43,576 nt of DNA from an uncultured Candidatus Saccharibacteria bacterium (GTDB taxonomy: Bacteria; Patescibacteriota; Doudnabacteria; UBA920; O2-02-FULL-48-8). A program made the translations under genes and the position numbers. The notes beneath the pieces are model-generated. The model was given only the letters and a program-made list of their open reading frames with translations, was not told the origin of the DNA and searched no databases. Where the stretch lies: positions 1 through 43,576 of the forward strand of contig CAYOPE010000004.1 in NCBI GenBank assembly GCA_964405805.1, in the 5' to 3' direction. Below are positions 13,102 through 41,178 of the stretch, piece after piece (position 1 is the first letter of the stretch; each line of letters opens with the position of its first letter).

Positions 13102-13110
13102 ACCAAAAAT

Positions 13111-13668: not shown

Positions 13669-13670
13669 TC

Positions 13671-14231: not shown

Positions 14232-14233
14232 AT

Positions 14234-14575: not shown

Positions 14576-14577
14576 AT

Positions 14578-16344: not shown

Positions 16345-16347
16345 ATT

Positions 16348-16719
16348 ATGTACCAAATTTTATTTGTTCACCAGGACCCGAAGTTACGGCAAATCTATGA
16401 GCCACATCTAGCCTCGCACTTTAGTCTAGATTCAGCCAGTGACGGCATGAGTGCTCTGCGAAAAATAAAAAGGAATTTACCTGACGCAGTGGTTTCCGAC
16501 TATTCTCTCCCAATAATTTCTGGCGTATCACTTTTGAGATTTATTCGAAGTCAGAACGAACTATCGCATCTGCCTTTTATCTTCCTTACAGCATATCCGG
16601 AGATTGATAATGGATTAAACTTAGGGGCAAATGATTGGATTAGTTTGCATGAGGCGACGCCAAGCGTATTAATCGATAGAATTTATAATCAATTAAAACT
16701 AAATCGCTATGTCGGGTAG
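16348..16719 (+). CDS. Stand-alone degenerate receiver (REC) domain protein
   Basis: REC-like layout with acceptor Asp (VVSDYSLP) and Thr (FLTAY). The N-terminal acidic pair (VHQD) is degenerate and the conserved Lys is not evident. Confidence 0.65.
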   Translation: MYQILFVHQDPKLRQIYEPHLASHFSLDSASDGMSALRKIKRNLPDAVVSDYSLPIISGVSLLRFIRSQNELSHLPFIFLTAYPEIDNGLNLGANDWISLHEATPSVLIDRIYNQLKLNRYVG

Positions 16720-16847
16720 TAGAAATTTGATATTTGTTCGCGAAGCGAACAAATTAAAAAAGCACGAAGATTTTAATATGCTATTTTATAAAAAACGCGA
16801 TAAAATAAAAAAATAATTAATTATTAATCAAATTTTCACTACCCGAT

Positions 16848-17927: not shown

Positions 17928-17929
17928 AT

Positions 17930-19132: not shown

Positions 19133-19181
19133 AGATTATGATACAAAAATTAATCACAAAATCTGGGAAGGGGGTGAACTT

Positions 19182-19610
19182 ATGAAAAGAAAAAATTTTG
19201 GTTTCACCCTCATCGAACTTTTGGTGGTCATAGCCATCATTGGTATTTTGGCAGCCGTGGTATTAGTATCCCTAAACTCAGCCCGCCAGAAGTCTAGAGA
19301 TGCTAGAAGACTTGCTGATGTCAGACAAGTCATGACAGCATTAGAACTCTACTATAACGATAACAATGGTTATCCCACAGCCACCTCAGGAGCCCCAACC
19401 ACTACAGATGGTTCTCCTGCCTGGTCAACCTACCTAGCCACCTGGCCCACTGTCCCTACCCCTGCAGATGGCACCTGTGGCAATGCTAATGCCTACACCT
19501 ATGCTCAAACCTCTTCTGGAGCTTCCTACACCCTAGCCTTCTGTCTAGGAGCAGTCACTGGAGGCTACACAGCTGGTAGTCATACAGCTTCTCCATCAGG
19601 GATACAGTAA
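19182..19610 (+). CDS. Type IV pilin, operon copy (mature part identical to 10476-10907)
   Basis: SD-like GGGGGTG before ATG 19182. Signal MKRKNFG|FTLIEL. Confidence 0.9.
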
Positions 19611-19615
19611 ACTAG
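19200..19615 (+). repeat. 416-bp perfect direct repeat, copy 2
   Basis: Identical to 10497-10912. Confidence 0.9.
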
Positions 19616-19657
19616 CACATCCAGCACCATTTATATAAATGGTGCTGGATAAACTTT

Positions 19658-20065
19658 ATGGAAAAAAACGGTTTTGTTAAAGCAGAATTATTGCTATTTT
19701 TTGTAATTTTGTTTTTGATTGGAGTTGCTGTTTTTTTTGCATACATCTTTTCTGCAACTCAAGCCGCTGACAAGCAACGCTTGGCAGATGTGGCCGTTAT
19801 GAAAGATGCTCTAAAAGTTTACTATAATGAAAATGGTTTTTATCCGAACGGCTCAGACACAGAAGATCCTGTGGACATGAATGATTATGTGGATCGTTGG
19901 CCGAAAAGTCCTCCTCTATCAGGCAGCTGCACCAGTCTGAATAATCGATATTTGTATAGTCAGAAATTAAATGGTTCTGATTTTACGTTAGACTTTTGTT
20001 TGGGCCAAAGCACGGACGGCGTTGCTGCTGGCGTGCATACACTAACCACAAGGGGAATTCAATAA
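19658..20065 (+). CDS. Divergent pilin-like protein
   Basis: Degenerate signal MEKNG|FVKAELLL (Glu at +5). Shares LKVYYNENGFYP and the C-terminal FCLG...GIQ with the pilin family. Confidence 0.75.
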   Translation: MEKNGFVKAELLLFFVILFLIGVAVFFAYIFSATQAADKQRLADVAVMKDALKVYYNENGFYPNGSDTEDPVDMNDYVDRWPKSPPLSGSCTSLNNRYLYSQKLNGSDFTLDFCLGQSTDGVAAGVHTLTTRGIQ

Positions 20066-20529
20066 TGCACAAAAAATCGGGATTTAGTTTAATTGAAGTT
20101 CTAGTCGTCATTGGTATAATTGGCCTTTTAGCTACGATTGTGACCGTAGCTACTGGGACTGCTAGAACCAAAGCTCGCGATGCCCGAAGACTTGATGACA
20201 TTCAGCAAGTTAAAACAGGTCTAGATCTTTATTACAATACTGGTGGTGGTTATCCAGCTACTGATGCCTGGAATACAGCTCAGGCCGCAAGTGCAGTCAT
20301 GGCCTGCTCAGGTACGGACACGTTAAGAGTGCCACAGGATCCGATACACGCGACGAACTCGAGTTTTGCATATACTTATACTCAAGGCGGCGATTCTTCT
20401 TCTGGCTGCGGAGGGAATGTTTATACAGATTATAAAATTCAATTCCAGACGGAAGCGAGGACTTCGATAGGAGCTGCCGGTACTTATTATCTTTCTTCAA
20501 AAGGAATTAGTTCTACGGCTCCATTTTAA
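20065..20529 (+). CDS. Type IV pilin paralog
   Basis: MHKKSG|FSLIEVLVVIGIIGLLA, ARDARRLDDIQQ. The TAATG overlaps the upstream stop. Confidence 0.88.
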   Translation: MHKKSGFSLIEVLVVIGIIGLLATIVTVATGTARTKARDARRLDDIQQVKTGLDLYYNTGGGYPATDAWNTAQAASAVMACSGTDTLRVPQDPIHATNSSFAYTYTQGGDSSSGCGGNVYTDYKIQFQTEARTSIGAAGTYYLSSKGISSTAPF

Positions 20530-21276
20530 ATGTTGATTCTATTATTTTTATTCGGGTTGATTATTGGCAGCTTTTTAAATGCTGTCATTTTTCGTTTGCA
20601 CTCAGGAGAGTCTTTTCTGTCAGGCCGCTCTCACTGCATGTCTTGCAAACATGAACTAGCAGCAGAAGATTTGGTGCCTTTGTTTAGTTTTTTATGGTTG
20701 CAGGGAAGATGTCGGTATTGCAAAGTCAAACTTTCCCGGCAGTATCCATTAGTGGAATTTTTAACTGGTTTGTTATTTGTACTGTTTGCGTTTCGTTATT
20801 CGCCATTCACAGCCCACTATTATTTCCAGATAATTTTTGCCAGCATATTCATAGTTGTGGCTGTTTTTGACTACAAACATTATTTGATTTTGGACAAAGT
20901 TGTCTTTCCAGCTCTGATTTTGGCCATCATCTATAACATTTGGCAGCATAATTTTTGGATCGGATTTCTCTCAGGGCTGGGAGTAGCAGGGTTTTTTCTG
21001 GCACAGTATTTGATTTCGAGAGGGAAGTGGATTGGTTTGGGCGACGTGAAGCTGGGTTTGGTTTTAGGGAATGTGGCACTTTGGCCAAACAGCGTCTTGG
21101 TTTTATTTTTAGCATACGTCTTCGGAAGTATCATTGGGATTTTTTTGATCCTAAGCAGAAAAAAGCATCTTGGATCCAAGCTTCCTTTCGGAGTCTTTTT
21201 AAGCCTTTCTGCTATAATAGTGATGTTAGTCGGGAATCCGATTATGCGTTGGTATCTAAATTTGATTGGATTATGA
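20530..21276 (+). CDS. pilD: Prepilin peptidase (A24 family) PilD
   Basis: N-terminal CMSC...CRYC zinc motif, catalytic-Asp context GLGDVKL, polytopic membrane protein. Confidence 0.92.
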   Translation: MLILLFLFGLIIGSFLNAVIFRLHSGESFLSGRSHCMSCKHELAAEDLVPLFSFLWLQGRCRYCKVKLSRQYPLVEFLTGLLFVLFAFRYSPFTAHYYFQIIFASIFIVVAVFDYKHYLILDKVVFPALILAIIYNIWQHNFWIGFLSGLGVAGFFLAQYLISRGKWIGLGDVKLGLVLGNVALWPNSVLVLFLAYVFGSIIGIFLILSRKKHLGSKLPFGVFLSLSAIIVMLVGNPIMRWYLNLIGL

Positions 21277-21280
21277 GAAT

Positions 21281-21823
21281 ATGAGAAATAGTCAAAAAGG
21301 TTTTACTTTAATTGAATTATTAGCAGTCCTGGTAATTACAGTGATGATCACCAGTATTACTGTGGCAAATTTTCGTAATGCCCAAAAGCAAAAGCAAGCA
21401 GCCATCGCTTCTGATTTAATTATAAACGCCCTCAGAACCGCCCAGTCTTCTGCCACATCAGGCAAGGCTACCAATAATTCCAATCCTAACTGTCGGACCC
21501 CGCAGTATTATTTTGTGAATTTTCAGTACCAAACTCAATTTTCATTGTCAGCATTTGATAATTGCAACAATTCCGATTTGGTAGAAACTTATTCATTGCC
21601 AGTTAACATACGAGTTAAAGCTTCGGGCTTGAAAGTGGATGGGGTTGCTGCGAATAACTCTTTAGCTATTTACTTTGCTCCACCGTTTGGACAAGCGACA
21701 GCAAACAAAGACGCAGCAGGTTTAAATTCCTTCACAGCTAGTACTGTTACTGTGGAAACAATTAACGGTTCTGTGAGTAAGACTGTGACGATCGATGGAG
21801 TTGCTGGGAGAATAGGAGAGTAA
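21281..21823 (+). CDS. GspH/FimT-like minor pseudopilin
   Basis: MRNSQKG|FTLIELLAVLVITVMI, followed by a beta-rich C-terminal domain. Confidence 0.8.
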   Translation: MRNSQKGFTLIELLAVLVITVMITSITVANFRNAQKQKQAAIASDLIINALRTAQSSATSGKATNNSNPNCRTPQYYFVNFQYQTQFSLSAFDNCNNSDLVETYSLPVNIRVKASGLKVDGVAANNSLAIYFAPPFGQATANKDAAGLNSFTASTVTVETINGSVSKTVTIDGVAGRIGE

Positions 21824-21825: not shown

Positions 21826-22539
21826 ATGAAGAAATTTTTTGAGATGATAAAGAGCTACGCCTGGGTCTCAGCAGTAATTTTAAGTGTTGCTGCTTTAGGC
21901 TTTAGTCTTTATAATTTAAAGCTTACCAAGCATGCTGCCAATAATGATCAGTATTCAGGAAACCAGAATTCAATCGTAACAGTTGATTATGATAAATTTT
22001 CGGCTGAGCCTTTGCTGCGGGATTTACCAGTTTTGGGGGATAGTAGCGCGCCGCTTACTTTATATGAATTTGCAGATTTTCAGTGTCCATACTGCAAACG
22101 ATTTTTTGATAACACCTTAGCTGGTTTGAAGAGTAGATATATGGACAGCGGCAAGCTACGATTAGCTTTTGTAAACTTGCCTCTGAGAGGACAGGAATCT
22201 AGAGATGCTGCTGAAGCTGCTATGTGCGCGAAAGATCAGGGGCAGTTTTGGCCATATCATGATTTGCTTTATAAAAACCAAGCGCCTGAAGAAAATTCTG
22301 GGGCTCTGAATCCGAAAAAATTCAAAAGCTTTGCGCAAACCTTGAACCTTGATATGAAAGTATTTAATGAATGTTTATCTTCACATAAAAATCTGGACGT
22401 TGTTAACGCCCAGCAGGCTTTGGCCGATAAATATGGAGCGGCAGTGACTCCAACCTTTTTCCTTAAAGATCGTATTATCATTGGTGCTCAGCCACTCGAA
22501 ATATTTATAAAAGCAATCGATGAGCAATTGGCGAAATAA
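21826..22539 (+). CDS. Membrane-anchored DsbA-like thiol:disulfide oxidoreductase
   Basis: TM anchor. Thioredoxin active site FQCPYCKRF. The length and the C-terminal TPTFF motif are typical of DsbA. Confidence 0.85.
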   Translation: MKKFFEMIKSYAWVSAVILSVAALGFSLYNLKLTKHAANNDQYSGNQNSIVTVDYDKFSAEPLLRDLPVLGDSSAPLTLYEFADFQCPYCKRFFDNTLAGLKSRYMDSGKLRLAFVNLPLRGQESRDAAEAAMCAKDQGQFWPYHDLLYKNQAPEENSGALNPKKFKSFAQTLNLDMKVFNECLSSHKNLDVVNAQQALADKYGAAVTPTFFLKDRIIIGAQPLEIFIKAIDEQLAK

Positions 22540-23545
22540 CCAGCCATTTAGGATAGTTTTCCTCTTTATCCTTGCTGCATTGGCAGCAATTTTCGTCATA
22601 AGTAAACACAGAAGCCCGCTGCCGACTAAAATAAATGAATCAGTAGAGCATTTTAAACAGCTTGATTATCAGTCGCAACTAGATTTGGTAAAAAAATCCG
22701 CTGAATCCGATCCAGTGGCTACTTGGCAGTTTGTAAAAGACGCATTTTTGATTAACGGTCAACAAGTCGGCAACGCTCACGAGTTTGCTCATTTAGTCGG
22801 CAACGCGATGTATGTCAAATTTGGCCTAGATGGCATTACTAACTGTGACCAAACTTTTGCTTTTGGCTGCTATCATGGAGTTACCGAGAAATTGTTGGTT
22901 GATCAAGGACCATCAGCGATTATAAAAATTCAGAATCGTTGTACTGAAATTTTCCCGCCAAGCAAAAGTCAAAATTTTACAGGTTGCATTCATGGTATGG
23001 GCCATGGACTATTTACTTATGAGCATTTCAGTGTGAGTAAGGCTTTGCAGGATTGCGACGGACTCGATAATCTTTACAAAACCTACTGCTATGACGGGGT
23101 ATTTATGGAGCATTCGACTGAATTGACTAAAGGAGAATTTAATCCCGCTCATCCGTGGCAATTCTGTACATCACTTGATTCGCGTTATCATTACAATTGC
23201 GCTCGCTACCAGTCCCAGATTTTTTTAGGCCAGTTTGGCGGAGATATTTCTACAGTTTCAAAAAATTGCTCAGCTACAACCGATGAAATCTTAGTGTCGA
23301 CTTGTTTTGAGAGTTTGGGCTACTACATTACTCAGCAGAACCTCGGTAAATTATCATCTATCCTCGATGCTTGCAGTAAAATTTCTGGAGAAGGTAAATA
23401 CCATTGTATTATTGGTTCTACTCGGGAAGTGAAGTTCCAAGCTTATCCAAATTGGCAGACAACAACTGTGGCTCTTTGCAATTCTTTACCAGAAACTTGG
23501 AAAAATACTTGTATAAATAATCAGCAACCTATAAGCCCAATGTAA
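22520..23545 (+). CDS. Membrane-anchored Cys-pair repeat protein, paralog 1
   Basis: N-terminal TM. About 7 reiterations of C-x7-14-C followed by a helix. His motifs AHLVGNAMY, CYHG, CIHGMGHGLF, CYDGVFMEH. Confidence 0.75.
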   Translation: MSNWRNNQPFRIVFLFILAALAAIFVISKHRSPLPTKINESVEHFKQLDYQSQLDLVKKSAESDPVATWQFVKDAFLINGQQVGNAHEFAHLVGNAMYVKFGLDGITNCDQTFAFGCYHGVTEKLLVDQGPSAIIKIQNRCTEIFPPSKSQNFTGCIHGMGHGLFTYEHFSVSKALQDCDGLDNLYKTYCYDGVFMEHSTELTKGEFNPAHPWQFCTSLDSRYHYNCARYQSQIFLGQFGGDISTVSKNCSATTDEILVSTCFESLGYYITQQNLGKLSSILDACSKISGEGKYHCIIGSTREVKFQAYPNWQTTTVALCNSLPETWKNTCINNQQPISPM

Positions 23546-24675
23546 TGAAAGATAATTTACAAAAAAATTGGCCAATAGCTTTAGCACTAATTGTTTTGCT
23601 CCTCGCAGTTATAAAATTTGCCAATGATCGAGGATATTTTCAGCATGTAAAAACTGGCGCTCAAACCGAAACTGCACAGACGATTGAAGATTACTGCAAC
23701 AATCCCACAAATGCTGCGAAAGATTTGGGCAAAGAAAGCTGTTTTTCCAAACAATTTAGGCAACTAGCCAAAGACCAAGGCCCAAAAAATGCTTTTTCAG
23801 TTTTACACGAACTTCAGTCGATTGATCCTAGTACTCGCGGCTGCCATTTGATCGCTCATGGCATTGGCTGGGGCACTTTTGAGCACGATCCGAAGGCTTG
23901 GCAGAATGATATCCAGACTATTGAGCCGTCTTGTAATTATGGCGCTCCCCACGGCATCATTGAAGCATACTTGGAGACGCAGCCAGATCACACTTTAACG
24001 AAAACTGTAATTCCGACTTTGTGCGGGCCCACTCCCAGAGCGGATTGCAATCATATTATTGGTCATCTAATCTTGGTTGAAACTCGGGCCGACGTGCCGA
24101 AGGCATTGGACCTATGTGATGTGTTTGACCAAAATCCCACGCAGCTTGATCACTGCTACACTGGAGTTTTTATGGAATATCAGACTGCGCTCAACTTGAT
24201 TGAACACGGATTTGCTCCGCAAAGCTGGCTAAACTGGCCTGCGAGAGTGCCGGAACTTGAAAAAATGTGTCGCAGCTACACTGATCGCAAGGCTAAAGAT
24301 TGCTGGAAAGAAATTGTCCACGCAGCTTTGGTTAAATTTAACAATGACCCGAAAACGATTTTTGATTTTTGTTCGACAGCGCAGGTTTCGGATGGAGCGA
24401 AAGAATGCCGTCGACACGCCATCGGCATCATGGCAGCAGGAAAACAGTTTGATTTACCGAATCTTAAATCTATGTGCGATTTGGCACAGCCAGATGATTC
24501 TGGATTTAAATCGGATTGTTACGTACAGCTAGCCGCCAGCACGCTTTCCACTGTCCCTGATGAGCAAGACCGGGTGAAGCAGTTTTGTGAAAGTTTGGAT
24601 AGCTCGTATCAGTCTATTTGCTTATCTCAGATAACAAGTTATAATAACTATTCTAGGAGCAGCGGCAATGACTAA
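23545..24675 (+). CDS. Membrane-anchored Cys-pair repeat protein, paralog 2
   Basis: Same architecture: CHLIAHGIGWGTF, CNHIIGHL, CYTGVFMEY. Confidence 0.75.
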   Translation: MKDNLQKNWPIALALIVLLLAVIKFANDRGYFQHVKTGAQTETAQTIEDYCNNPTNAAKDLGKESCFSKQFRQLAKDQGPKNAFSVLHELQSIDPSTRGCHLIAHGIGWGTFEHDPKAWQNDIQTIEPSCNYGAPHGIIEAYLETQPDHTLTKTVIPTLCGPTPRADCNHIIGHLILVETRADVPKALDLCDVFDQNPTQLDHCYTGVFMEYQTALNLIEHGFAPQSWLNWPARVPELEKMCRSYTDRKAKDCWKEIVHAALVKFNNDPKTIFDFCSTAQVSDGAKECRRHAIGIMAAGKQFDLPNLKSMCDLAQPDDSGFKSDCYVQLAASTLSTVPDEQDRVKQFCESLDSSYQSICLSQITSYNNYSRSSGND

Positions 24676-25807
24676 TCTCATCAATCAACTTAAGAAAAAT
24701 TACCAGATCGTGGTTATCACGGTGGCTTTGATCTTCGCGGCAGTACTTGTTTTTTACTCTAAGCCTCATCAGTCGAAGCAGAGCACAAATTCTGAACCTG
24801 CTCAAGAAATTACGCAGATAAAAAATACATCCAACCTTTTAGATCAAGTTAAACTTTACAAACAATTGATTGATCGTGTGGGAGCAGCACAAGCTCAAGA
24901 AGATTTGCTACGTTCCGGATTGCCATTTACAGGACAGACTCATTTACTCAATCACACAGTAGGCGAATATTTGTATAAAACTAAAGGGGTGTCGGGTTTG
25001 TCAGAATGCAAAGAATATTTTTTGGCTTCCTGCTATCACGGATTTATTTTGGACGCCATCGCTGATGGTGGAATTCCGCAGGTCGTGAAAGTCATGCAAG
25101 CGTGTAAGCCGCAGGGAGCGGCAGTTTATCCGCAGTGCGCGCATGCAGTGGGCCATGGATTTTTAACCTACATTGATTATAAAAATATCCCGCAGGCGCT
25201 CGGCATGTGTGAGCAGATGCAGCAGCAAATTTCAGATTTTCCTCTGTTTAACTGTGAGGACGGGGTGTTTATGGAAAACATCTGGGGAGTGCATGATGGC
25301 GAGCCTTCGCCAAACCGCTGGGTAAAGGATTCCGATCATTTTTATCCTTGTGATGACAAGCGAATTGAATCCAAATATTTACTGGCCTGCTGGTCCAACC
25401 AGCCGTCACTCGCTTATCAGCAATTTCATGGGGATATAGCTGCGGTCGGAAAACTTTGCGCTACAGTCACCCCAGCAAATTTAGAAGAAATGTGCTTTAA
25501 TGGTTTGTCGCGACAAATTCATCCGATTGCCGCAGGAGATATCGACAAAACTTTTGAACTTTGTGGTCTTCTCGATGGCAAATGGAAAAATTATTGCATT
25601 GTGATTAATGATCAGGCATCGTTTGCCGTGGGGGATCGATCATTGCCGTTTGCGATTTGTAGTCGGATCGATGCGTCTGATAAAGACCGATGCTTCCAAG
25701 GCTTAATCGGAATGATTAGTGTCTATGCTAAAAGCTCAGATGACCGTACTCAGCTGTGTGCTCAGATTGCAGATGAGACTTGGCGCCAAAGATGTTTAGG
25801 CCGATAA
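24668..25807 (+). CDS. Membrane-anchored Cys-pair repeat protein, paralog 3
   Basis: Same architecture: NHTVGEYLY, CYHGF, CAHAVGHGFLTY, CEDGVFMEN. Confidence 0.75.
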   Translation: MTNLINQLKKNYQIVVITVALIFAAVLVFYSKPHQSKQSTNSEPAQEITQIKNTSNLLDQVKLYKQLIDRVGAAQAQEDLLRSGLPFTGQTHLLNHTVGEYLYKTKGVSGLSECKEYFLASCYHGFILDAIADGGIPQVVKVMQACKPQGAAVYPQCAHAVGHGFLTYIDYKNIPQALGMCEQMQQQISDFPLFNCEDGVFMENIWGVHDGEPSPNRWVKDSDHFYPCDDKRIESKYLLACWSNQPSLAYQQFHGDIAAVGKLCATVTPANLEEMCFNGLSRQIHPIAAGDIDKTFELCGLLDGKWKNYCIVINDQASFAVGDRSLPFAICSRIDASDKDRCFQGLIGMISVYAKSSDDRTQLCAQIADETWRQRCLGR

Positions 25808-25854: not shown

Positions 25855-26346
25855 CTATCTCGTTCCCTGCTTTTCTAAGAGGATGATTGACCAGACTTTG
25901 TTTATGCCATCGCCTTTCATATCACCAACTTTGGTATCTTCTTTATAGTGATAAAGCGGAGTCGTACCATAGGAATACTGATAAGTTCCATCTTTTCTCT
26001 TAATCACGTTTAATCGTTTATACAGATCTCCGGTTAAAGTCTTCAAATCTTTATTGTCATACATAAATGGTGGCCAGTTTTGAGCGCAAGCGTCATAGCA
26101 GCTCGATTGGCCGTTTTTGTCATTGGCTGTAACGTATAGCGTCATACACTTGGAGTCAGTGAGGTAATTTCCAAGCTTCGAAGAAGCTGTCATGATAACT
26201 TCTTTAGTCGCCGAATTTGCACATGGGCTCGCTGTTTGATTATTATTTGTTACTTGAGGGGCAGAACTAGGATGACTGTTTAAAACTAGTATCACTGCGA
26301 TTACTACAGCTATCACCACGATTCCAATAGTGAGATTTTTATTCAT
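25855..26346 (-). CDS. Secreted-repeat protein of the Yx(FWY)xxD-motif lipoprotein family (COG4315-like)
   Basis: N-terminal TM/signal sequence. CYDACAQNWPPF and TPLYHYKEDTKVGDMKGDG match the family signature as I recall it. Confidence 0.75.
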   Translation of the reverse strand: MNKNLTIGIVVIAVVIAVILVLNSHPSSAPQVTNNNQTASPCANSATKEVIMTASSKLGNYLTDSKCMTLYVTANDKNGQSSCYDACAQNWPPFMYDNKDLKTLTGDLYKRLNVIKRKDGTYQYSYGTTPLYHYKEDTKVGDMKGDGINKVWSIILLEKQGTR

Positions 26347-26437: not shown

Positions 26438-26502
26438 TATACGCTACAGTAAAGGCAAGTACCGGGCAATCACGCCCAAAAAAATCGATGGAGGACACGC
26501 AG

Positions 26503-27664: not shown

Positions 27665-28225
27665 ATGCGAAACGAAAATCAAAAGTTTATCATCATAATT
27701 ATCGTAAGTTTATTTTTAGTTATAGGAGTTGTAGCTTCGGTTTACTATTTCTCAGATAAAAATATTCCCCAACCAGAGCAGGAAAACGCTAAGCTAGTTT
27801 CTAAAGCTCCCACTGCCAATCCTAAACCTGATAATTTATCTGAGACTACAGCCAAGCTTTATGTTGCTAATAGCATTACGGTTCCTCCAAAAATAGTTGA
27901 TGCGAAAACAATTGAGAAATCAGTTCTACCGATTGATCTCATAAATCTTATTCCTGCGGATGCTTATTATACGAAGGTAGAAAGTATAAAATTTGCAGAT
28001 AATAAACTAGGATTTAAAATCCTATACCAAATGCCTAGTCTGATTTATCTCAATCAAACTTTTTATGCAGCATTTAGTACGAAAGGTTGGAAAATAGTCA
28101 AAGCCGCTCATACTAGTATAGTCGGTTTGATGTTTATGCAAAAAGATAAATTCGATACTTGGGTCGAAGAATCAGTGGTCGACGAAAAAAATATCAATGT
28201 CATTCTTACGATTGTTTCGAAATAA
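27665..28225 (+). CDS. TM-anchored accessory protein, family P, paralog 1
   Basis: N-terminal TM. The shared block LPxDLxxLI...x-Y-x-x-G-[FY]-x-[IV] also occurs in 28886-29386 and 31600-32151. Confidence 0.7.
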   Translation: MRNENQKFIIIIIVSLFLVIGVVASVYYFSDKNIPQPEQENAKLVSKAPTANPKPDNLSETTAKLYVANSITVPPKIVDAKTIEKSVLPIDLINLIPADAYYTKVESIKFADNKLGFKILYQMPSLIYLNQTFYAAFSTKGWKIVKAAHTSIVGLMFMQKDKFDTWVEESVVDEKNINVILTIVSK

Positions 28226-28889
28226 TTTAAATATTATCAGTTTAGTTATCAGCGTCATAGCTTTGGGTTTAGTTTTGTATCAGTATCAATCAATTCAGCA
28301 CAGCAAACCGGTTGTGGCAAAATCAGAAGCTTTTGACGCAGAAGGAATCGTACAAAAAATAAATCCGCAGGCTCCGATCATGGGGGACGAAACAGCACCA
28401 GTGACTGTGGTCGAGCTAGGGGATTTTCAGTGCCAATTTTGTAAAATGTTTTATGATCGATCTTTTAAAAATTTAATTGAAAAATATTCAGCAGAAGGAA
28501 AAATTAAGTTTGTGTTTGTGGATTATCCGTTTTTAGGCGAAGAATCGAAGCTTGCTGCTGAAGGGGGGATGTGCGCACAAGACCAAAATCAATTTTGGTC
28601 ATACTATAAATATTTATACGAGCATCAAGGACTGAAAAATCAGGGTAATTTTCGAACCAGTCAATTGATGAAATTTGGTTCTAAACTCCCTCTTAACCAA
28701 GATAAATTTTCTGATTGCTTAAAAAAACATATTCACGCGCAAGATGTCGGAAAGATTGTCAATGTAGAAACTAGCTTGGCGATTGGCGGTACTCCCACTT
28801 TTTATATCAATAAAGATAAGTACCGAGGAGCAAAAAGTTTGGCTTACTATAAAGATATCATTGATAAGCTACTGACTTTACATAAATGA
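28197..28889 (+). CDS. Second membrane-anchored DsbA-like oxidoreductase
   Basis: TM anchor and active site FQCQFCKMF. Paralog of 21826-22539. Confidence 0.85.
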   Translation: MSFLRLFRNNLNIISLVISVIALGLVLYQYQSIQHSKPVVAKSEAFDAEGIVQKINPQAPIMGDETAPVTVVELGDFQCQFCKMFYDRSFKNLIEKYSAEGKIKFVFVDYPFLGEESKLAAEGGMCAQDQNQFWSYYKYLYEHQGLKNQGNFRTSQLMKFGSKLPLNQDKFSDCLKKHIHAQDVGKIVNVETSLAIGGTPTFYINKDKYRGAKSLAYYKDIIDKLLTLHK

Positions 28890-29386
28890 AGATTCAGAAT
28901 AAAATAACTCTAACAATACTTTTCATTGCAGTTATTTTTTTAGTGTTTTCTTTTGACCAAAAATCTCAAAATTCTAGAAATCAGCAAGTTAAAGGATCGC
29001 AGTATTCCATCCTCCAGTCAGAAAAAATAAAAATTCCGGAAGCCGAAACAACTACCAAAAGTGCTCTTCCCAAAGACCTTGAGTCGCTAATATTTTCAAA
29101 CCCTCAGAATCTCTCAATAAACCATATCAACTATCAAAATGGATTGACTGGATATCGGGTAAGTATGAATTTAGATTTTCCATTATACTCAGCTTTTAAT
29201 GCTTACTCGAAAATGTATTTTGATGAAAGACATTGGAAAAAAATTAATGCTTTGTTTTCCCCGGATACTGAAAAAATGGGATTCATAGAAATGGAAAATA
29301 AAAATTATCAAGTACAGGTCGAATTGCACCGACTCGACACAGACAATACTGGAATTTTAATTAAGATTATACAGCCACAGTTATGA
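28886..29386 (+). CDS. TM-anchored accessory protein, family P, paralog 2
   Basis: SALPKDLESLIF...INYQNGLTGYRVSM. ATGA overlaps the downstream adhesin gene. Confidence 0.7.
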   Translation: MKIQNKITLTILFIAVIFLVFSFDQKSQNSRNQQVKGSQYSILQSEKIKIPEAETTTKSALPKDLESLIFSNPQNLSINHINYQNGLTGYRVSMNLDFPLYSAFNAYSKMYFDERHWKKINALFSPDTEKMGFIEMENKNYQVQVELHRLDTDNTGILIKIIQPQL

Positions 29387-30672
29387 AAAGCCTTCTTTTG
29401 ATCTTACTAGTGATAACCTTCTGTATATTTTTGCCAGGTATAAACAAGCTCCATGCTGATTACTGTGGTGAACACTTGACTTGTGGGCACAACCTTGATA
29501 TTGATTATTGTGTTGATAATGGACCAACCTGGTGTCCTGGCGGTTGCGTGCCTGCCGGCTCAGTGAGCTGTGATGCCTATGGCCAGTCAGAATTTTGTGG
29601 AGATATTTTTAACTGCAGCAATTATAATATTGAATACTTTTATGAATATGAATACCAATATCCCTATCAATACGAGTATCAGTATGAATACCAGTACCAG
29701 TATCAATACCCTTACCAATATCAGTACCAGTACCCGTATCAATATGAATACCAATACCCAACCCCATATTCTTATCAGTACCAGTATGAATACCAGTATC
29801 AGTACCAATATCAGTATCAGTACCAGACCCCGTATTCTTACCAGTATCAATACCAATACCAATACCAGTATCAGTATCAGTACCAGACCCCAATTATTCC
29901 ACCAACTGCTCCTACACTTAATGCAGTAGACAACACCACTTGCGCTCAGCTTCACCTGACGTGGGTAGATAATTCTTCAAATGAAGACGGCTTTACAGTT
30001 TGGCGCTCCACGACTTCTGGTTCAGGTTTCAGCAATATTTCTGGTAATCTTCCGGCCAATACTACGACTTATACAGACACACCCCCTTCCACTGGTGTTA
30101 CGTATTTTTATATCGTTAAAGCGTTTATAAATTATCCTCCGTTGTCAGAGTCTTCTTCCAACGAGCAGAGTGCCATGAACCTAGCTTGTAGCGCTTCTAT
30201 GGCAAATACCAATATCGTCGCGCTGAAAGTTAACGGTGTTAATTTTACAACCACCACCACTGTGAAGAATGGTGACACCGTCACCTACCAAATCACCCTA
30301 GTCAACTCAGGTCCTTCCAATGCTACCATCAACTACATCTGTGACTTCCCATCATCAAACCTGACAAACTTAAGAAACCTCACTGTCTCAGGCCCTGGTT
30401 CTAGCAATGGGGGAATCACAGCTAACTCACCAACCTGTAACAATTCCTACAAATTCAATGTCTCCGGCAACAAGAATCTAGCCAACAACTGGGTTATTAC
30501 CTTTGATGGTACTGTCTCAACTGCTATCACAGACATCCAGGAAGTCATGAAAGACAGCATCAGAATCAACTTCTCTGATCCTACCAACAAAGACTGGTCT
30601 GGCTCTGCCCCGAACATCCTTATTAACTCTACCAAAGGCAAGACCCCCAACTTCAGAGAGGTCAGTCCATGA
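29383..30672 (+). CDS. Exported adhesin-like protein 1: signal peptide, 10-Cys knot, (Y-x)n tract, FN3, DUF11-like beta-sandwich
   Basis: About 84 residues have Tyr at every second position. FN3 signature LTWVDNSSNEDGFTVWRS...YFYIVKAF. GDTVTYQITLVNSGPSNAT is typical of DUF11-type repeats. Confidence 0.85.
   Translation: MKSLLLILLVITFCIFLPGINKLHADYCGEHLTCGHNLDIDYCVDNGPTWCPGGCVPAGSVSCDAYGQSEFCGDIFNCSNYNIEYFYEYEYQYPYQYEYQYEYQYQYQYPYQYQYQYPYQYEYQYPTPYSYQYQYEYQYQYQYQYQYQTPYSYQYQYQYQYQYQYQYQTPIIPPTAPTLNAVDNTTCAQLHLTWVDNSSNEDGFTVWRSTTSGSGFSNISGNLPANTTTYTDTPPSTGVTYFYIVKAFINYPPLSESSSNEQSAMNLACSASMANTNIVALKVNGVNFTTTTTVKNGDTVTYQITLVNSGPSNATINYICDFPSSNLTNLRNLTVSGPGSSNGGITANSPTCNNSYKFNVSGNKNLANNWVITFDGTVSTAITDIQEVMKDSIRINFSDPTNKDWSGSAPNILINSTKGKTPNFREVSP
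29623..29874 (+). repeat. Degenerate hexanucleotide (TAY-CAR/GAR/CCN) tandem array encoding (YQ/YE/YP)n
   Basis: Codon usage varies between units (TAT/TAC, CAA/CAG), so the repeat is conserved at the protein level rather than being a simple slippage array. Confidence 0.9.
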
Positions 30673-30673
30673 A
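30274..30673 (+). repeat. 400-bp perfect direct repeat, copy 1 (adhesin 3' end)
   Basis: Identical to 32987-33386 by direct reading. Includes the stop and the first nucleotides of a pilin start (ATGAA). Confidence 0.9.
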
Positions 30674-30680
30674 GTAACTA

Positions 30681-30709
30681 TTGACAAAAATTCTTTTTTG
30701 AAGTAAAAT
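30681..30709 (+). promoter_or_regulatory. Sigma70 promoter TTGACA-17-TAAAAT of cassette G
   Basis: Read directly. Inverted repeat ATTCCTA...TAGGAAT (30708-30734) overlaps the -10 and +1 positions. Confidence 0.6.
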
Positions 30710-30758
30710 TCCTAGTTACAATGTAGTTAGGAATTTTGGCTTTTCAAGGAGGAATGCC

Positions 30759-31478
30759 ATGAAGTACATCGCGACGATCGCAGTTGCGTTGTTTCTGGCT
30801 ACCTCCGCGGTGGCCAAAGACAAAGCGCCGACGTATAGTGAAGACGAAATCGCCAAGTACGAAGCAGCGGTTGATGTTGCGGCGATTCGGATTTCACAGG
30901 GAACGGATACTCTGGCAGCGGCGAAGCGAGCCGACGTAGAGGCTGTTGCCGAGAAGTATCGACGCGGTTTCCACCTCGTCGAAGAGACCAACCCGCTTTA
31001 CCGACTGGTCTCAGAGCAGTATGGAAAGCTCGCCGGTTCTCGTCGAGTGCGACTGCATTTGTTTCGCGGTCCGAGCTTGCCTGGAGTCGCGATCGGGGAT
31101 GACGTCTATCTCCACTACGACTCCATACACAAGCTGGCGACCTTCGCTGGCGGTCCGAACCTGATTTTGGCAACTCTGGCTCATGAACTGGGCCATGGGT
31201 CTGCTGACTTTACGCGACTGCTCGTCATTGACGGGCTTGCTCTACCAGCGGACCTGAAAGAAAGTCTGCGGCTGCGACTCGAGATGCGAGCTGACGAGGA
31301 AGCAGCGCGGCTGATGCAGGTATCGAACTTGTCGACTGACGGACTGACACAGAACCTTCGGGCTCTGGACTCAGGCACTGACAACGACGAGGACGGCCGG
31401 CTCAAGCAGCGCATTGCAAACCTCGAGATGTTTGCCAAGATGCCGCGCGTCGCTTCTGGCACACAATACCAACGCTAG
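30759..31478 (+). CDS. GC-rich cassette G: secreted HExxH zinc metalloprotease (M48-like)
   Basis: SD AAGGAGG. Signal peptide MKYIATIAVALFLATSAVA. Zinc site LAHELGHG with downstream EMRADEEA. Confidence 0.75.
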   Translation: MKYIATIAVALFLATSAVAKDKAPTYSEDEIAKYEAAVDVAAIRISQGTDTLAAAKRADVEAVAEKYRRGFHLVEETNPLYRLVSEQYGKLAGSRRVRLHLFRGPSLPGVAIGDDVYLHYDSIHKLATFAGGPNLILATLAHELGHGSADFTRLLVIDGLALPADLKESLRLRLEMRADEEAARLMQVSNLSTDGLTQNLRALDSGTDNDEDGRLKQRIANLEMFAKMPRVASGTQYQR

Positions 31479-31498
31479 CGCACTGGCGTTGGTTCCGA

Positions 31499-31557
31499 GA
31501 CCCGAGAGACTGACAGCTCATTACTGTCTTCACTCGGGTCTTCGCTTTGTCTTTTTT
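31499..31557 (+). terminator. Long hairpin plus T-run
   Basis: GACCCGAG..GACAG-loop-CTGTC..CTCGGGTC followed by TTCGCTTTGTCTTTTTT. Confidence 0.7.
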
Positions 31558-31599
31558 ATAAAATATGGCATAATACAGATAGAATCTTACTTATTTTTC

Positions 31600-32151
31600 A
31601 TGGGAAATCAAAACAAATTTTACTATTTAACTGTGAGTTTAGTAGCTTTGGTTACTTTGCTGGTCATAGGCTTAGTGAGCTACTTTATGGTTTTTAGGAC
31701 TGACTCAAATTCAAAGATTCAGACAAAGCCTAGTGAAAAAACCAACCAAGCTTCAGTGCCTGCTGATTTCGAGAATTTGCTAAATAATTCTAAAATTTAT
31801 GTGCCAGAAGTTAAGCAGAGTCAGGACATAAAAATTTCAGACCTGCCTACTAATTTATCAACCTTGCTTTTAAAGGACGCTCAAACAAGTGTCATAAAAA
31901 AAGTGACATATAATGATTTGAGTCAAGGTTTTCTTATCATTTACACAGTTGGATCTACTGTTGCAAATAGTTTTCAAAGCTTATCTTATCTCGTAGAAAA
32001 ATTACCGTTTAATCCTTATAACGGAGCGGGCACCACGGACAAAGGTATTATCGAAGCCGGAGACAATGCGTATCATTATCAAATTTTACTAAAAGCCATG
32101 GCTGATAAGAGCGAAATTAAGATAACAGCCATCAAATACTTAAGTGACTAG
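31600..32151 (+). CDS. TM-anchored accessory protein, family P, paralog 3
   Basis: ATG 31600 follows promoter TGGCATAAT (31565). SDLPTNLSTLLL...VTYNDLSQGFLIIY. Confidence 0.7.
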   Translation: MGNQNKFYYLTVSLVALVTLLVIGLVSYFMVFRTDSNSKIQTKPSEKTNQASVPADFENLLNNSKIYVPEVKQSQDIKISDLPTNLSTLLLKDAQTSVIKKVTYNDLSQGFLIIYTVGSTVANSFQSLSYLVEKLPFNPYNGAGTTDKGIIEAGDNAYHYQILLKAMADKSEIKITAIKYLSD

Positions 32152-33385
32152 ACAAAAGATAAAAATAATTATATTTTTTCTGCTTACCTTAAGCCTCGGT
32201 TTGATTTTAGGTTTAGCCCAAAATAGCAATGCCCAGAGTTGTGCCGGCGGCACTGGTGGTGGCTGTGGTGGCTCTGATGCAGGCTCTTGTATCGGTTCAC
32301 CGCTGTCATGCATTGGCGCTGCTTGCCATGTGGAGTCCCAGCCTGTTAGTTGTTCTGGTAATGGTGATACTTGGCAGTGCCCAAACGATGTCTGCGTGTT
32401 TGATTATGAATATCCTTACCCATACCAGTATCCGTATCCTTATCAGTACGAGTATGAGTATCAATATCCTTATCCCTATCAATACGAGTACCAATACCAA
32501 TACCAGTATCAGTACCAATATCCGTACCAATACGAATACCAATATCAAACCCCGTACTCTTATCAGTATCAGTACCAATACCAATACCAGTATCAGTACG
32601 AGTATGAAACGCCACCTCCACCGCCGCCAAATGCTCCAACGCTGAATAGTGTCGGAAACGCTACTTGTGCCCAGCTGAACCTGAGTTGGACTGACAATTC
32701 GTCAGATGAAAAAGGTTTTACTGTTTGGCGCTCCACTACTTCTGGTTCTGGTTTTAGCCAGATTAATTCAGTCGGTCCAAACATCACAACTTTCGTGGAC
32801 ACGCCTCCGAGTGTGGACACGTCGTATTTCTATGTGGTCAAAGCGTTTAATGATTTTGGTGAAAGCGCTTCAAACGAACAAAGTGCACTTAATCGGAAGT
32901 GTGAAGCCTCCATGGCCAACACCAGAGTTAGATTGATTAAAGTTAATGGTGTGAATTTCTCATCAGTGGATACTATTAAAAATTCCGACACCGTCACCTA
33001 CCAAATCACCCTAGTCAACTCAGGTCCTTCCAATGCTACCATCAACTACATCTGTGACTTCCCATCATCAAACCTGACAAACTTAAGAAACCTCACTGTC
33101 TCAGGCCCTGGTTCTAGCAATGGGGGAATCACAGCTAACTCACCAACCTGTAACAATTCCTACAAATTCAATGTCTCCGGCAACAAGAATCTAGCCAACA
33201 ACTGGGTTATTACCTTTGATGGTACTGTCTCAACTGCTATCACAGACATCCAGGAAGTCATGAAAGACAGCATCAGAATCAACTTCTCTGATCCTACCAA
33301 CAAAGACTGGTCTGGCTCTGCCCCGAACATCCTTATTAACTCTACCAAAGGCAAGACCCCCAACTTCAGAGAGGTCAGTCCATGA
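32144..33385 (+). CDS. Exported adhesin-like protein 2 (GTG start), same architecture as 29383-30672
   Basis: Signal peptide, 10 Cys, a (Y-x)n tract of about 65 residues, poly-Pro, FN3, and a C-terminal domain that is nucleotide-identical to paralog 1. Confidence 0.85.
   Translation: MTRQKIKIIIFFLLTLSLGLILGLAQNSNAQSCAGGTGGGCGGSDAGSCIGSPLSCIGAACHVESQPVSCSGNGDTWQCPNDVCVFDYEYPYPYQYPYPYQYEYEYQYPYPYQYEYQYQYQYQYQYPYQYEYQYQTPYSYQYQYQYQYQYQYEYETPPPPPPNAPTLNSVGNATCAQLNLSWTDNSSDEKGFTVWRSTTSGSGFSQINSVGPNITTFVDTPPSVDTSYFYVVKAFNDFGESASNEQSALNRKCEASMANTRVRLIKVNGVNFSSVDTIKNSDTVTYQITLVNSGPSNATINYICDFPSSNLTNLRNLTVSGPGSSNGGITANSPTCNNSYKFNVSGNKNLANNWVITFDGTVSTAITDIQEVMKDSIRINFSDPTNKDWSGSAPNILINSTKGKTPNFREVSP
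32405..32599 (+). repeat. Hexanucleotide array encoding (YP/YQ/YE)n
   Basis: Same type of array as 29623-29874. Confidence 0.9.
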
Positions 33386-33386
33386 A
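32987..33386 (+). repeat. 400-bp perfect direct repeat, copy 2
   Basis: Identical to 30274-30673. Confidence 0.9.
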
Positions 33387-34008
33387 ACAGCAGAGAGGAC
33401 AAAGCTTAATCGAGACCATTGTCGCAATCTTTATCCTAACCTCATCTTTAATCGGAGGTTTGGGTTTAACTATCTACGCTTTTTCTGGTTCGACCAATTC
33501 ACAAAACGAGTTCCTAGCATCTAACCTGGCTCGCGAAGGGGTAGAAGTCATCCGGACGATCCGCGATTCGAGCTGGCTTTCAGGTGATAAGCAGGGAGGC
33601 GCTGCTGATTTACAAACTTGTGCTGATATTGGTAGTAAGCTCTGTTATCCACAAGCCTACAGTGGCATTAATGCTGGAAATCAGAGAATCGTGTTTGATA
33701 CACTGACCAGTTCTTGGGCGTTAGTCAGTAATCCAGTAAATTATAATTTGTATTTGCAAGCAGATGGTACGTATTCTAGTGTCACGAATGGTGCTTCTGT
33801 CTTTGGGCGCATGATTAACATCAGTTTTAACTCCAACGCTCCGTATACGAATCAAAACTCTAATCAAGAAATGATTGTTAAGTCAGTAGTTGCTTGGCGA
33901 GGGAAAGGATGTACTAGTTTTACTTCTACAGACAATCTGTTAACTCTTTCCACGCCCTGCAAGACAGTGGTCGAAGAGCACATGACTAACTGGAAGGATT
34001 ATAAATGA
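33382..34008 (+). CDS. Minor pilin / pseudopilin
   Basis: MKQQRG|QSLIETIVAIFILTSSL (Glu at +5). ATGA overlaps the adhesin 2 stop. Confidence 0.8.
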   Translation: MKQQRGQSLIETIVAIFILTSSLIGGLGLTIYAFSGSTNSQNEFLASNLAREGVEVIRTIRDSSWLSGDKQGGAADLQTCADIGSKLCYPQAYSGINAGNQRIVFDTLTSSWALVSNPVNYNLYLQADGTYSSVTNGASVFGRMINISFNSNAPYTNQNSNQEMIVKSVVAWRGKGCTSFTSTDNLLTLSTPCKTVVEEHMTNWKDYK

Positions 34009-34565
34009 CACGTATCACGTATCGCGGGTCACGTCTCAAGGGGTTTACCCTGATTGAAGCAGTGGTGGCTACTGCAGTATTTGCTTTTACTATTGTTTCG
34101 ATTTTAGGAGTTTACGTAGCTACTACCAAACTTGATCGGAAAAGCAGAGCGGAAAGAGCAGTTTCCCAAAACGGCCGTTTCATCATGGAGTTTCTAGCCA
34201 AAGAAATCCGCAATGGGACGATAGATTACTCTAGCTACCCGGGCGGTACGGTTTCCACCACTACAGATTTGTTTTTAGAAAATCAAGCCAATGAACTTGA
34301 GCATCTTTTTAAAAGTGGCAATGATATGATTTTAAACAAAGGTTCAAATGTCAACATGAATTCGGCTTCTGTAAAAGTGACGAAGTTGGATTTTTATATC
34401 AAACCAGTGGGAAATCCTTTCACTGTCGCGAAAACTTTTAACGAACAGCCGCACGTCACTGTGATTTTACAGCTGCAATCAAACTATGGAACTCGGACGA
34501 ATGATATAGCTACTCTTAATTTAGAAGATACTTTTGCCGTTCGAATTTATCCAAGTCGAGAATAA
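34005..34565 (+). CDS. Minor pilin / pseudopilin
   Basis: RLKG|FTLIEAVVATAVFAF. Confidence 0.8.
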   Translation: MTRITYRGSRLKGFTLIEAVVATAVFAFTIVSILGVYVATTKLDRKSRAERAVSQNGRFIMEFLAKEIRNGTIDYSSYPGGTVSTTTDLFLENQANELEHLFKSGNDMILNKGSNVNMNSASVKVTKLDFYIKPVGNPFTVAKTFNEQPHVTVILQLQSNYGTRTNDIATLNLEDTFAVRIYPSRE

Positions 34566-34566: not shown

Positions 34567-35331
34567 ATGAAAAAACAAGCAGGTGTTACGTTGATAATAT
34601 CAATTCTAATAATGTCAGCTGTGGCTCTGGCTAGTGTCGCTGTGGCCGCGTTTGCTCTTTCAGAAATTCGTTCATCCAGAGCAGTCGCGTTAACTGAACC
34701 TGCGATTTCTGCTTCAGAAACAGCCGGGGAGCAAGGATTGTGGGCGATTAAACGCGACGTCTCGCTTACCAATTGTAATTCTGGTCAGACCACAGTTAGC
34801 TTAAGCAATGGGGCAATAGTTAATTCCTGTAAAACTTATTCTAAAGCCACGATTAACCTTAAAGGTGGCGTGCCTTTTGTCTTTTTCTTATACGACCCAA
34901 ATGACCCCAATGGCAATCTCTGCATGAATCAGACTTATGATTCAGGACAGCATAGCGGGTGTGCAGGAGCAGCTATCTATACCAGCATTACGATTGTCCA
35001 CAAGGCTGGAACTTCTGATGTTTCTGTAACCACTCGTGATTTAAATGGTAATGCCTTTGCAGGCTCTGATATTACTGTAACTAGAAATTCTACAGGGACT
35101 GTAACGATTCCAGATCCGATACCGGCCACTCCGCCGACTAATGACGAACGATTAAAAGTAACTCTGTCTTCAAATACTGATACAACTATAGAGTTAAATG
35201 CTTTGCCTTTGGGACTACCAAACTATCCGACTGTGAGCGCAGGTGGCTGTGCAGCAAAAACCGCTCTTTCAGATTGTACTTCAGGAGCGGAGATATTCAA
35301 CCGTAGATTAAATATTACAGTGCCTCAGTAG
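34567..35331 (+). CDS. PilX-like minor pilin / pilus-associated protein
   Basis: MKKQAGVTLIISILIMSAVALASVAV resembles the PilX N-terminal domain (no Glu at +5). Confidence 0.65.
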   Translation: MKKQAGVTLIISILIMSAVALASVAVAAFALSEIRSSRAVALTEPAISASETAGEQGLWAIKRDVSLTNCNSGQTTVSLSNGAIVNSCKTYSKATINLKGGVPFVFFLYDPNDPNGNLCMNQTYDSGQHSGCAGAAIYTSITIVHKAGTSDVSVTTRDLNGNAFAGSDITVTRNSTGTVTIPDPIPATPPTNDERLKVTLSSNTDTTIELNALPLGLPNYPTVSAGGCAAKTALSDCTSGAEIFNRRLNITVPQ

Positions 35332-40002: not shown

Positions 40003-40012
40003 AGGAGGGCGT

Positions 40013-40237: not shown

Positions 40238-40247
40238 GGAGAGCGTC

Positions 40248-40433: not shown

Positions 40434-40443
40434 TTCTCAGCCC

Positions 40444-40570: not shown

Positions 40571-40581
40571 GGAGGATCGAG

Positions 40582-41169: not shown

Positions 41170-41178
41170 GGGGGCGTT

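Follow-up and report, generated by a model that had tools for sequence, protein, structure and literature searches.

Two exported proteins with alternating-tyrosine tracts beside minor-pilin genes: candidate stalked surface proteins of a CPR bacterium

Two genes in a 43,576-nucleotide contig (CAYOPE010000004.1, the whole of which is called the window below) from an uncultured Candidatus Saccharibacteria bacterium encode exported proteins, here YQ proteins A and B, that carry a tract with tyrosine at every second position between a cysteine-rich head and a folded base. We propose, with a probability of roughly 0.55, that A and B are paralogous, Sec-exported, non-pilin surface proteins in which the tract acts as a length-variable stalk displaying the head, while the base and a C-terminal peptide attach the protein, probably in association with a pilus. 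The evidence lies in the anatomy of the two proteins, the rarity of the tract, its modular recurrence in other bacteria of the candidate phyla radiation (CPR), its interchange with polyproline and other Pro-rich sequence, its length polymorphism, and the synteny of the base with minor-pilin genes.

The two proteins and their tracts

The features of the two genes are as follows.

29383..30672, + strand: YQ protein A, 429 aa, ATG start
29635..29886, + strand: alternating-tyrosine tract of A, 84 aa (aa 85-168)
30637..30669, + strand: conserved extreme C-terminal peptide of A (…KGKTPNFREVSP), outside the predicted fold
32144..33385, + strand: YQ protein B, 413 aa, GTG start overlapping the preceding open reading frame (ORF)
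32405..32608, + strand: alternating-tyrosine tract of B, 68 aa (aa 88-155)

Protein A consists of a signal peptide (aa 1-25), a head with eight cysteines (aa 26-84), the tract (aa 85-168), an FN3 domain (aa ~172-268), a DUF11-like Ig domain (aa ~274-416) and a flexible tail with the C-terminus TPNFREVSP. Protein B has a signal peptide (aa 1-30), an 8-Cys head (aa 31-87) and the tract (aa 88-155), followed by PPPPPP, FN3 and DUF11-like Ig domains, and a tail identical to that of A. An earlier note on this DNA, made from the letters alone, had called both proteins exported, and a Sec-type signal peptide can indeed be read in each. The tracts it described are present, with limits that shift from ~81-164 and ~88-152 to 85-168 and 88-155, and the ten cysteines it counted in the head become eight in the mature head of both proteins. 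Frameshifts, which it had named as a danger to its reading, are absent; both ORFs are intact. A and B are 72% identical overall. Their heads (57-59 residues) are highly divergent and belong to no recognisable family, the tracts differ by indels, and the final ~130 residues are identical. At the DNA level the final ~390 nt are 100% identical (30283-30672 vs 32996-33385), the identity stopping at the stop codon, a pattern that speaks for gene conversion maintaining a shared base and tail, or else for an assembly effect.

The period-2 register is unbroken in both tracts, as had been claimed. The in-phase positions hold 40 Tyr and 2 Thr in A and 33 Tyr and 1 Thr in B, and the out-of-phase positions Q27 E6 P6 S2 F1 in A and Q18 P8 E7 S1 in B, so that proline takes a 14-24% share of the latter; Pro-free runs in the tract of A reach 20 residues. 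The TPYS units that had been seen as punctuation are there, two in A and one in B, each with a T-P dipeptide in place of Y-Q and no shift of register. Since tyrosine accounts for only ~4% of residues in the other genes of the window, a chance origin of the tract is excluded. The periodicity is a property of the protein, because the 6-nt period of the DNA is matched at just 62-71% (one 60-nt duplication is matched at 90%) and neither Tyr codon is clearly preferred (TAC/TAT 20/20 in A, 16/17 in B; the remaining window genes have 29% TAC). The earlier suggestion of selection at the protein level thus largely holds, whereas the strict alternation of synonymous codons from which it was drawn is weak (runs test, P=0.04 in A and not significant in B), and "mixed" fits the codons better.

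The base of the proteins is folded with confidence. In the AlphaFold2 (AF2) model of A, the predicted local distance difference test (pLDDT) score exceeds 90 over aa ~170-418, is ~30 with no secondary structure over aa 13-168 (head and tract), and falls to ~55 beyond aa 418, the last ~11 residues being flexible. The assignment of an FN3 domain was borne out by the model and by the family profile, which matched the PDB entry 3mpc ("Fn3-like protein") with E=6e-8; many FN3 proteins were also hit in a separate search. The DUF11-like assignment stood in fold and fell short in score: PF01345 gave 19.1 and 17.2 bits, just under its curated cut-off of 24.6, and TIGR01451 gave 23 and 17.8 under a cut-off of 24. 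Foldseek with the AF2 model placed tandem FN3 structures at the top, with Cna and sortase-pilin Ig domains among the matches, and the predicted fold of the second domain is compatible with a DUF11 or Cna-B-like Ig domain. A profile search with the alignment of the DUF11-like domain and tail (A4) was uninformative, in that it returned two short fragments only and missed even the known members.

A high density of N-x-S/T sequons had also been remarked on, and the count stands (12 per ~260 aa, or ~3 per 100 aa, vs 0-2.2 in other proteins). The density is explained by a composition rich in N, S and T: composition shuffles give 8 +/- 2.4 sequons and 5-12% of them reach 12, so that no enrichment beyond composition is seen. 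The protein at 37958, taken earlier for a GT-C-like membrane protein, has no Pfam match, which leaves that label unsupported, and the suggested link to glycosylation has no support.

The tract itself is rare. It has no match in Pfam, NCBIfam or PDB sequence searches, in keeping with the view that it is no described domain, and a full-text literature search for it returned synthetic QYQYQYQ peptides only. A DNA pattern for YQYQYQTPY occurs in three of 185,579 species-representative genomes, all from the CPR (one each of Doudnabacteria, Saccharibacteria and Zambryskibacteria), and at 13 metagenome loci, several of them from Hainich (Hain-H14) samples; it was not found in viral contigs. When the tract alone was run with phmmer against 1.84 billion representatives, 23 matches were obtained at E<=1e-3, a number that is not the size of the family, as the composition correction of HMMER probably hides other members. 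Nearly all of these were unrelated aromatic-X low-complexity sequences (F-D/E, Y-P-Y-S and W-Q repeats), and the sole true YQ protein among them was P0023 (P and L numbers are our own labels). Other alternating-Tyr tracts (Y-P/S/N/D/E) are present in unrelated proteins of the 1.84-billion-protein library (P0032, P0034 and P0036). Because these exist, the general alternating-Tyr pattern is not unique; the Y-Q/TPY type is CPR-restricted.

Linker exchange, the C-terminal peptide and the minor pilins

In relatives, the tract invariably connects folded modules of exported proteins or of pilins, a modular context that fits the general idea of a stalk already raised in the earlier note. Most often a signal peptide is followed by a small Cys-rich head, the tract, Ig-like or InlB-B-repeat domains and finally a short conserved terminus; head, tract and domains are arranged in this way in L004-L006, L009-L011, L015 and others. 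True minor pilins, with a prepilin motif, carry the tract as well (P0024/L003 of Zambryskibacteria and L002 of Saccharibacteria), and there it joins the pilin domain to a C-terminal domain rich in Cys or Gly. The unit length between TP marks is irregular among homologues. The beta-solenoid that had been offered as one form of the stalk, like any other defined fold, is not supported: this irregular spacing and the absence of predicted structure over the tract (pLDDT ~30, no secondary structure) speak against it.

The same position can be filled by other sequences. In L020/L021, whose base is 57% identical, polyproline fills it in runs as long as ~20 residues, whereas L001, the homologue from Doudnabacteria, has (DPYS)n and P0001 has (GTPSY)n; more distant members of the family carry different domains at this place, with no tract, and P0002-P0009 and L023-L025 lack the tract and keep the base. 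Length varies even between near-identical genes: L004 10081-12468 and L005 5069-7480, from two samples, show 0 mismatches over 2,388 nt, and their sole difference is a 24-nt indel equal to (YQ)4, giving proteins of 795 and 803 aa. This indel, and those between A and B, indicate that the length of the tract is free to vary. L004 also contains three tandem genes with VF(N/H)EF ends. For L020 9272-10867 and for L021 3524-5119 and 6345-7997, the called starts fall at an internal Met; taken at full length, these ORFs include a signal peptide and a Cys-rich head, and their polyproline runs alternate with C-x-D-x-N-A-x-N-Y-G-G-x-L-P-C mini-loops ahead of FN3.

The extreme C-terminal peptide is present in 12 of the 12 family members examined, and E426, V427 and P429 of A are invariant in the family. 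The end of the A/B family reads (T/V)P-x-F-(R/Q/K/I)-E-V-(A/S/V)-P, with the general form P-x-F/Y-x-E-V/F/I, and conserved ends elsewhere include FNYLEF, FNYQEF, VFNEF, NFQEF, TFKEIPPG and KFKEVPPG. Of the 13 non-pilin tract proteins, 12 have an F/Y-x-E-V/F/I end; the other, L008, has a C-terminal transmembrane helix instead.

The gene for B runs directly into an operon of minor pilins, the start of the first overlapping the stop of ORF B by 4 nt.

33382..34008, + strand: minor pilin pp1, GspI-like, Glu5 present, C-terminus NWKDYK (N_methyl match)
34005..34565, + strand: minor pilin pp2, in a GspJ-like operon position (N_methyl match)
34567..35331, + strand: minor pilin pp3, PilX/GspK-like, without Glu5 (JGI names, AF2 model)

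Genes for LysM and LigA proteins come after pp1-pp3. The synteny of pp1 extends to L001 and L023-L026, and the module of FN3, DUF11-like domain and ...FREVAP end adjoins pp1-pp2-pp3-LysM-LigA in four divergent genomes (the window, L023, L024 and L025), in which pp3 is just ~40% identical and the N-terminal payload is different each time. L026 has no such module, and a 673-aa pilin with additional domains stands at its pp2 position. Enlarged minor pilins of this kind, with Big_7 and Gly-rich C-terminal domains, are encoded at L026 5966-7984 (673 aa) and L002 4417-6012 (531 aa), where they occupy the place of the separate tail-bearing protein of other genomes. Two homologues of pp3 carry the name "PilX" at JGI, and its AF2 model is pilin-like, with a 60-residue N-terminal helix and a beta-sandwich that has its own C-terminal strand inside the fold. 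PDB sequence searches with pp1, pp2 and pp3 gave no match, and Foldseek with the pp3 model gave no significant PDB match and no relation to GspK or PilX.

The last ~10 residues of PilC, PilY1 and MshQ have been reported in a preprint to dock to a PilK-type minor pilin by strand complementation (PMC12918778), and host attachment in Saccharibacteria is mediated by type IV pili (PMC9894109). We infer an extended conformation of the tract, an adhesin function and docking to the pilus tip. The tract would be a low-complexity, length-variable spacer holding the head away from the base, with a span of ~21-29 nm if fully extended. The head would be the variable and presumably ligand-binding part; it is where A and B diverge most, in contrast to their identical last ~130 residues. 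The base (FN3 and DUF11-like Ig) and the C-terminal peptide would form an attachment module. Since the position of this module beside a GspI/J/K-like minor-pilin operon is conserved, attachment is most plausibly to a pilus tip complex, in the manner of the C-terminal strand of PilC/PilY1, or perhaps to some other partner at the cell surface.

The wider pilus locus

The two genes belong to two cassettes, in each of which a small membrane-anchored protein is encoded together with a YQ protein, 3' of the machinery for a type IV pilus. The nearest named relatives of the window genes are Ca. Doudnabacteria, which places the genome in the CPR/Patescibacteria.

12070..21823, + strand: type IV pilus machinery (Pfam matches; prepilin motifs), in the order PilM, PilN, PilO, PilB, response regulator, PilT, PilC, three pilins, PilD, GspH/FimU-like pilin
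21826..22539, + strand: DsbA-like thiol-disulfide oxidoreductase, copy 1 (Thioredoxin_4 and DSBA matches)
22520..25807, + strand: Cys1-3, three membrane-anchored Cys/His-rich paralogues that recur beside YQ genes elsewhere
25855..26346, - strand: Lipoprotein_15-repeat secreted protein (Pfam match)
28197..28889, + strand: DsbA-like oxidoreductase, copy 2, 5' of YQ cassette A (Thioredoxin_4 and DSBA matches)
28886..29386, + strand: small N-terminally anchored protein, with a 4-nt overlap (ATGA) with ORF A
31600..32151, + strand: small N-terminally anchored protein (start MGNQNKF), overlapping the GTG start of ORF B

The type IV pilus apparatus is complete by Pfam, with PilD as its prepilin peptidase. 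The two DsbA-like genes fit the disulfide-rich exported heads. Cys1-3 contain 14-16 Cys and the invariant motifs H-x3-H, HG, C-x-H-x2-G-H and GVFME, found no match in Pfam, NCBIfam or PDB searches, and adjoin YQ genes in L004/5, L011 and L015; their invariant His/Cys motifs may form an extracytoplasmic metal site. The Lipoprotein_15 gene recurs together with Cys1-3 and YQ genes, with tblastn matches in L001, L004/5, L011 and L015. Translational coupling within the cassettes is suggested because two of three small anchored proteins overlap the start of the next YQ gene. The three (27665-28225, 28886-29386 and 31600-32151) are weak paralogues of 24-27% identity with one N-terminal membrane helix each.

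Three islands of high GC content (26488-27558, 30759-31478 and 39265-41649; 50-59% vs a background of ~41-43%) stand out in the window. The first encodes a Big_2 protein with an HELFH motif, and a Big_2 gene of 60.5% GC is found at a comparable position in L001. The second, which lies exactly between the two YQ cassettes, encodes a protein with an HELGH motif and no Pfam match. A promoter and terminator scan returned consensus matches at background level, except for a strong near-consensus sigma-70-like site at 30681-30709, which precedes the HELGH gene. Further 5' of the pilus locus lie a gene for an Rce1-like/CPBP intramembrane protease (7652-8260) and, near it, BacA (4153-5013) and PAP2 (6984-7655) genes. 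The rRNA genes are unlinked: the 16S gene (1-1676), with its 5' end cut off, holds a group I intron at 665-1096, tRNA-Ile and tRNA-Ala (11548-11956) lie ~10 kb 3' of it, and the 23S gene (42286-43576) starts 40 kb 3', so that the entire type IV pilus locus sits between 16S and 23S.

Competing explanations and known systems

Several observations weigh against a stalk docked to the pilus. No pilus gene is present within the available flanks in L004-L006, L007-L011 and L013-L019, and because most metagenomic tract loci are of this kind, the tract, and probably the tail too, is not confined to pilus loci. In its AF2 model, pp3 already has a C-terminal strand of its own, and the Foldseek result relates it neither to GspK nor to PilX. 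The 390-nt identity between A and B could partly reflect an assembly problem. The low pLDDT of the tract comes from a low-complexity region and an alignment of nine sequences, and does not prove a lack of structure. Furthermore, a plain spacer leaves the retention of Tyr and Gln across three CPR classes unexplained.

This retention invites readings in which the chemistry of the tract matters. In one that we hold to be unlikely, Pro-free (Y-Q/E)n stretches of several molecules, or hairpins within one molecule, would zipper into an amyloid-like or beta-ribbon rod; that this would yield a stiff, protease-resistant spike, or an adhesive joining pili or cells, is likewise doubtful. In its favour, stable amyloid fibrils form by self-assembly of Ac-QYQYQYQ-NH2 and related Tyr-X heptapeptides (PMC10510724), A has Pro-free runs of up to 20 residues, a strict period of two is the classical signature of an amphipathic beta-strand, and in bovine antibodies with an ultralong third complementarity-determining region of the heavy chain (CDR H3) alternating Tyr on the descending strand is thought to help support the disulfide knob (PMC7232318). 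However, proline at 14-24% of out-of-phase positions and the T-P marks break the runs, unit lengths are irregular, AF2 predicts no strands, homologues use polyproline or xPYS repeats that are unable to form beta-sheets, and no amyloid-export or nucleator gene could be recognised among the window ORFs scanned. A more specific form, with the (Y-Q/E)n tracts of neighbouring molecules at the pilus tip or on apposed cells zippered into a natural cross-beta rod with a continuous row of phenols, is a rather slim prospect; such a rod could be rigid and perhaps metal-binding or redox-active, and might be matured by the neighbouring His/Cys-rich membrane proteins. If true, the synthetic QY amyloids would have their first natural counterpart, by which CPR episymbionts would lock onto their hosts.

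Alternatively, the tract might itself be sticky, its strip of Tyr/Thr hydroxyls and aromatic rings binding host wall glycans or hydrophobic surfaces, with the head as an accessory. The composition of the tract, and not its length alone, is kept across Doudnabacteria-like, Saccharibacteria and Zambryskibacteria proteins, only Tyr or Thr is found in phase, and these are surface or pilus proteins of lineages known as episymbionts; yet members without a tract (P0002-P0009, L023-L025) keep the base and, in the operon, its position, and close homologues have polyproline in place of the tract, so we consider this unlikely, and the parallels with the aromatic strips of carbohydrate-binding modules and with Tyr-rich marine adhesives equally tentative. 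The hydroxyl on every in-phase residue would also suit a substrate for tyrosine modification, through dityrosine or DOPA cross-linking, Tyr/Thr O-glycosylation or metal coordination, the enzymes perhaps being Cys1-3. Cys1-3, with their invariant His/Cys/Met/Glu motifs, and Lipoprotein_15 recur beside tract genes in the window, L004/5, L011 and L015, and fibrils of the heptapeptide bind Cu, Zn, Ni and Co via Tyr (PMC10510724). On the other hand, no peroxidase, laccase, tyrosinase or glycosyltransferase domain was detected in the window, and no oxidase gene was recognisable there; an enzymatic role for Cys1-3, which belong to no known family, is guesswork, and their co-occurrence could be synteny inherited among related genomes. 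The sequons do not exceed the expectation from composition, and dityrosine, like amyloid, is weakened by the exchange of the tract for polyproline or Pro-rich repeats in close homologues and by the Pro at up to a quarter of the out-of-phase positions. We regard modification as improbable. The identical final 390 nt, the foreign-looking high-GC gene between A and B and the hypervariable length of the tract might raise the suspicion of a decaying gene that has undergone microsatellite-like expansion, or of a chimera made in assembly. Each ORF is unbroken, though, between its signal peptide and the conserved C-terminus, and both overlap their neighbours as in operons, the same architecture is seen on independent contigs from several studies, and the DNA repeat is imperfect where the protein register is perfect, which makes an artefact scarcely credible.

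For the reading we prefer, that of a spacer between a head and an attachment module, a close parallel is the Ser-Asp (SD) dipeptide-repeat stalk of staphylococcal Clf/Sdr adhesins, which is long, alternating, length-variable and written in mixed synonymous codons. Both are alternating dipeptide repeats of variable length and mixed codons between a ligand-binding region and an attachment end; here, by contrast, the repeat is Tyr-Gln/Glu/Pro instead of Ser-Asp, an LPXTG sortase signal and a wall anchor are both lacking, and the setting is an Ig-like base with a short C-terminal peptide, a CPR bacterium and a type IV pilus locus. Pro-rich rigid linkers, such as polyproline, the (Glu-Pro)/(Lys-Pro) repeats of TonB and the Pro-Thr linkers of glycoside hydrolases, are likewise extended low-complexity interdomain spacers. 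Polyproline takes the same site in close homologues and Pro is frequent out of phase, but these linkers lack Tyr at every second residue and the tract has Pro-free stretches of up to 20 residues. What would be new is a dipeptide-repeat stalk of the Tyr-X type in a modular surface or pilus adhesin, rare and CPR-restricted.

A and B lie outside the pilin, PilY1, sortase-anchored and known amyloid families, because defining features of each were looked for and are absent. They have ordinary Sec signal peptides, with no prepilin leader (one that ends in Gly and precedes F/M-T-L-I-E and a hydrophobic helix) and no N_methyl match (Pfam N_methyl, TIGR02532); they have no LPXTG end, the TPNFREVSP terminus being without a hydrophobic segment; they have no match to the Neisseria_PilC beta-propeller in Pfam, the AF2 model being an FN3 plus Ig-like sandwich; and no nucleator, chaperone or export genes of the functional amyloid systems (curli, Fap, TasA) are found among the window ORFs scanned, while the irregular units of the tract do not resemble the imperfect ~20-residue strand-loop-strand repeats of those systems. 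The likeness to PilC/PilY1/MshQ is one of arrangement (PMC12918778): these too are non-pilin, Sec-exported proteins encoded beside GspI/J/K-type minor-pilin genes, in which the N-terminal part varies and the C-terminal part is conserved, down to a short conserved peptide at the extreme C-terminus. They differ in that A and B have no beta-propeller and no sequence or fold similarity to them, the base being FN3 and DUF11-like Ig, the gene is 5' of the I-like minor pilin and not 3' of the K-like one, and the pp3 model appears self-complete.

The bovine ultralong CDR H3 also presents a small disulfide-bonded knob on a protruding stalk with alternating Tyr (YxYxY) (PMC7232318), although there it is a short two-stranded beta-ribbon in an antibody loop and here a single pass of 68-84 residues between domains, so that the resemblance to a knob on a stalk is an analogy only. 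The QY7 peptides share an identical alternating Gln/Tyr motif (PMC10510724, PMC8483438); they are designed, seven residues long and form amyloid in vitro, and neither paper describes a natural protein counterpart. The Pam pili (bioRxiv 10.64898/2026.03.03.709456), in the passages of the preprint considered here, resemble A and B in being CPR-specific and Sec-exported, with Ig-like domains, paired Cys and a role in host contact, the last of these being only proposed for A and B; those passages report no tyrosine tract, and describe two-domain pilins that polymerise by donating an interdomain linker strand and a chaperone-usher-like operon, of which there is none in the window. Membership of the Pam pili has no support here: no similarity or chaperone/usher-like operon was found in the window, and PDB sequence and fold searches, made without PamA/PamB sequences, gave generic FN3/Ig matches only.

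Little is known of the means by which ultra-small CPR/Patescibacteria recognise and grip their hosts, and for most lineages no receptor-binding component has been defined. A and B are plausible candidates for host-gripping proteins of CPR cells, and the locus offers them in concrete form, as a base-plus-tail module in a minor-pilin operon with interchangeable N-terminal payloads. The physical state of the tract bears, in addition, on protein materials and on the construction of low-complexity stalks, given that its synthetic analogues form amyloid and bind metals.

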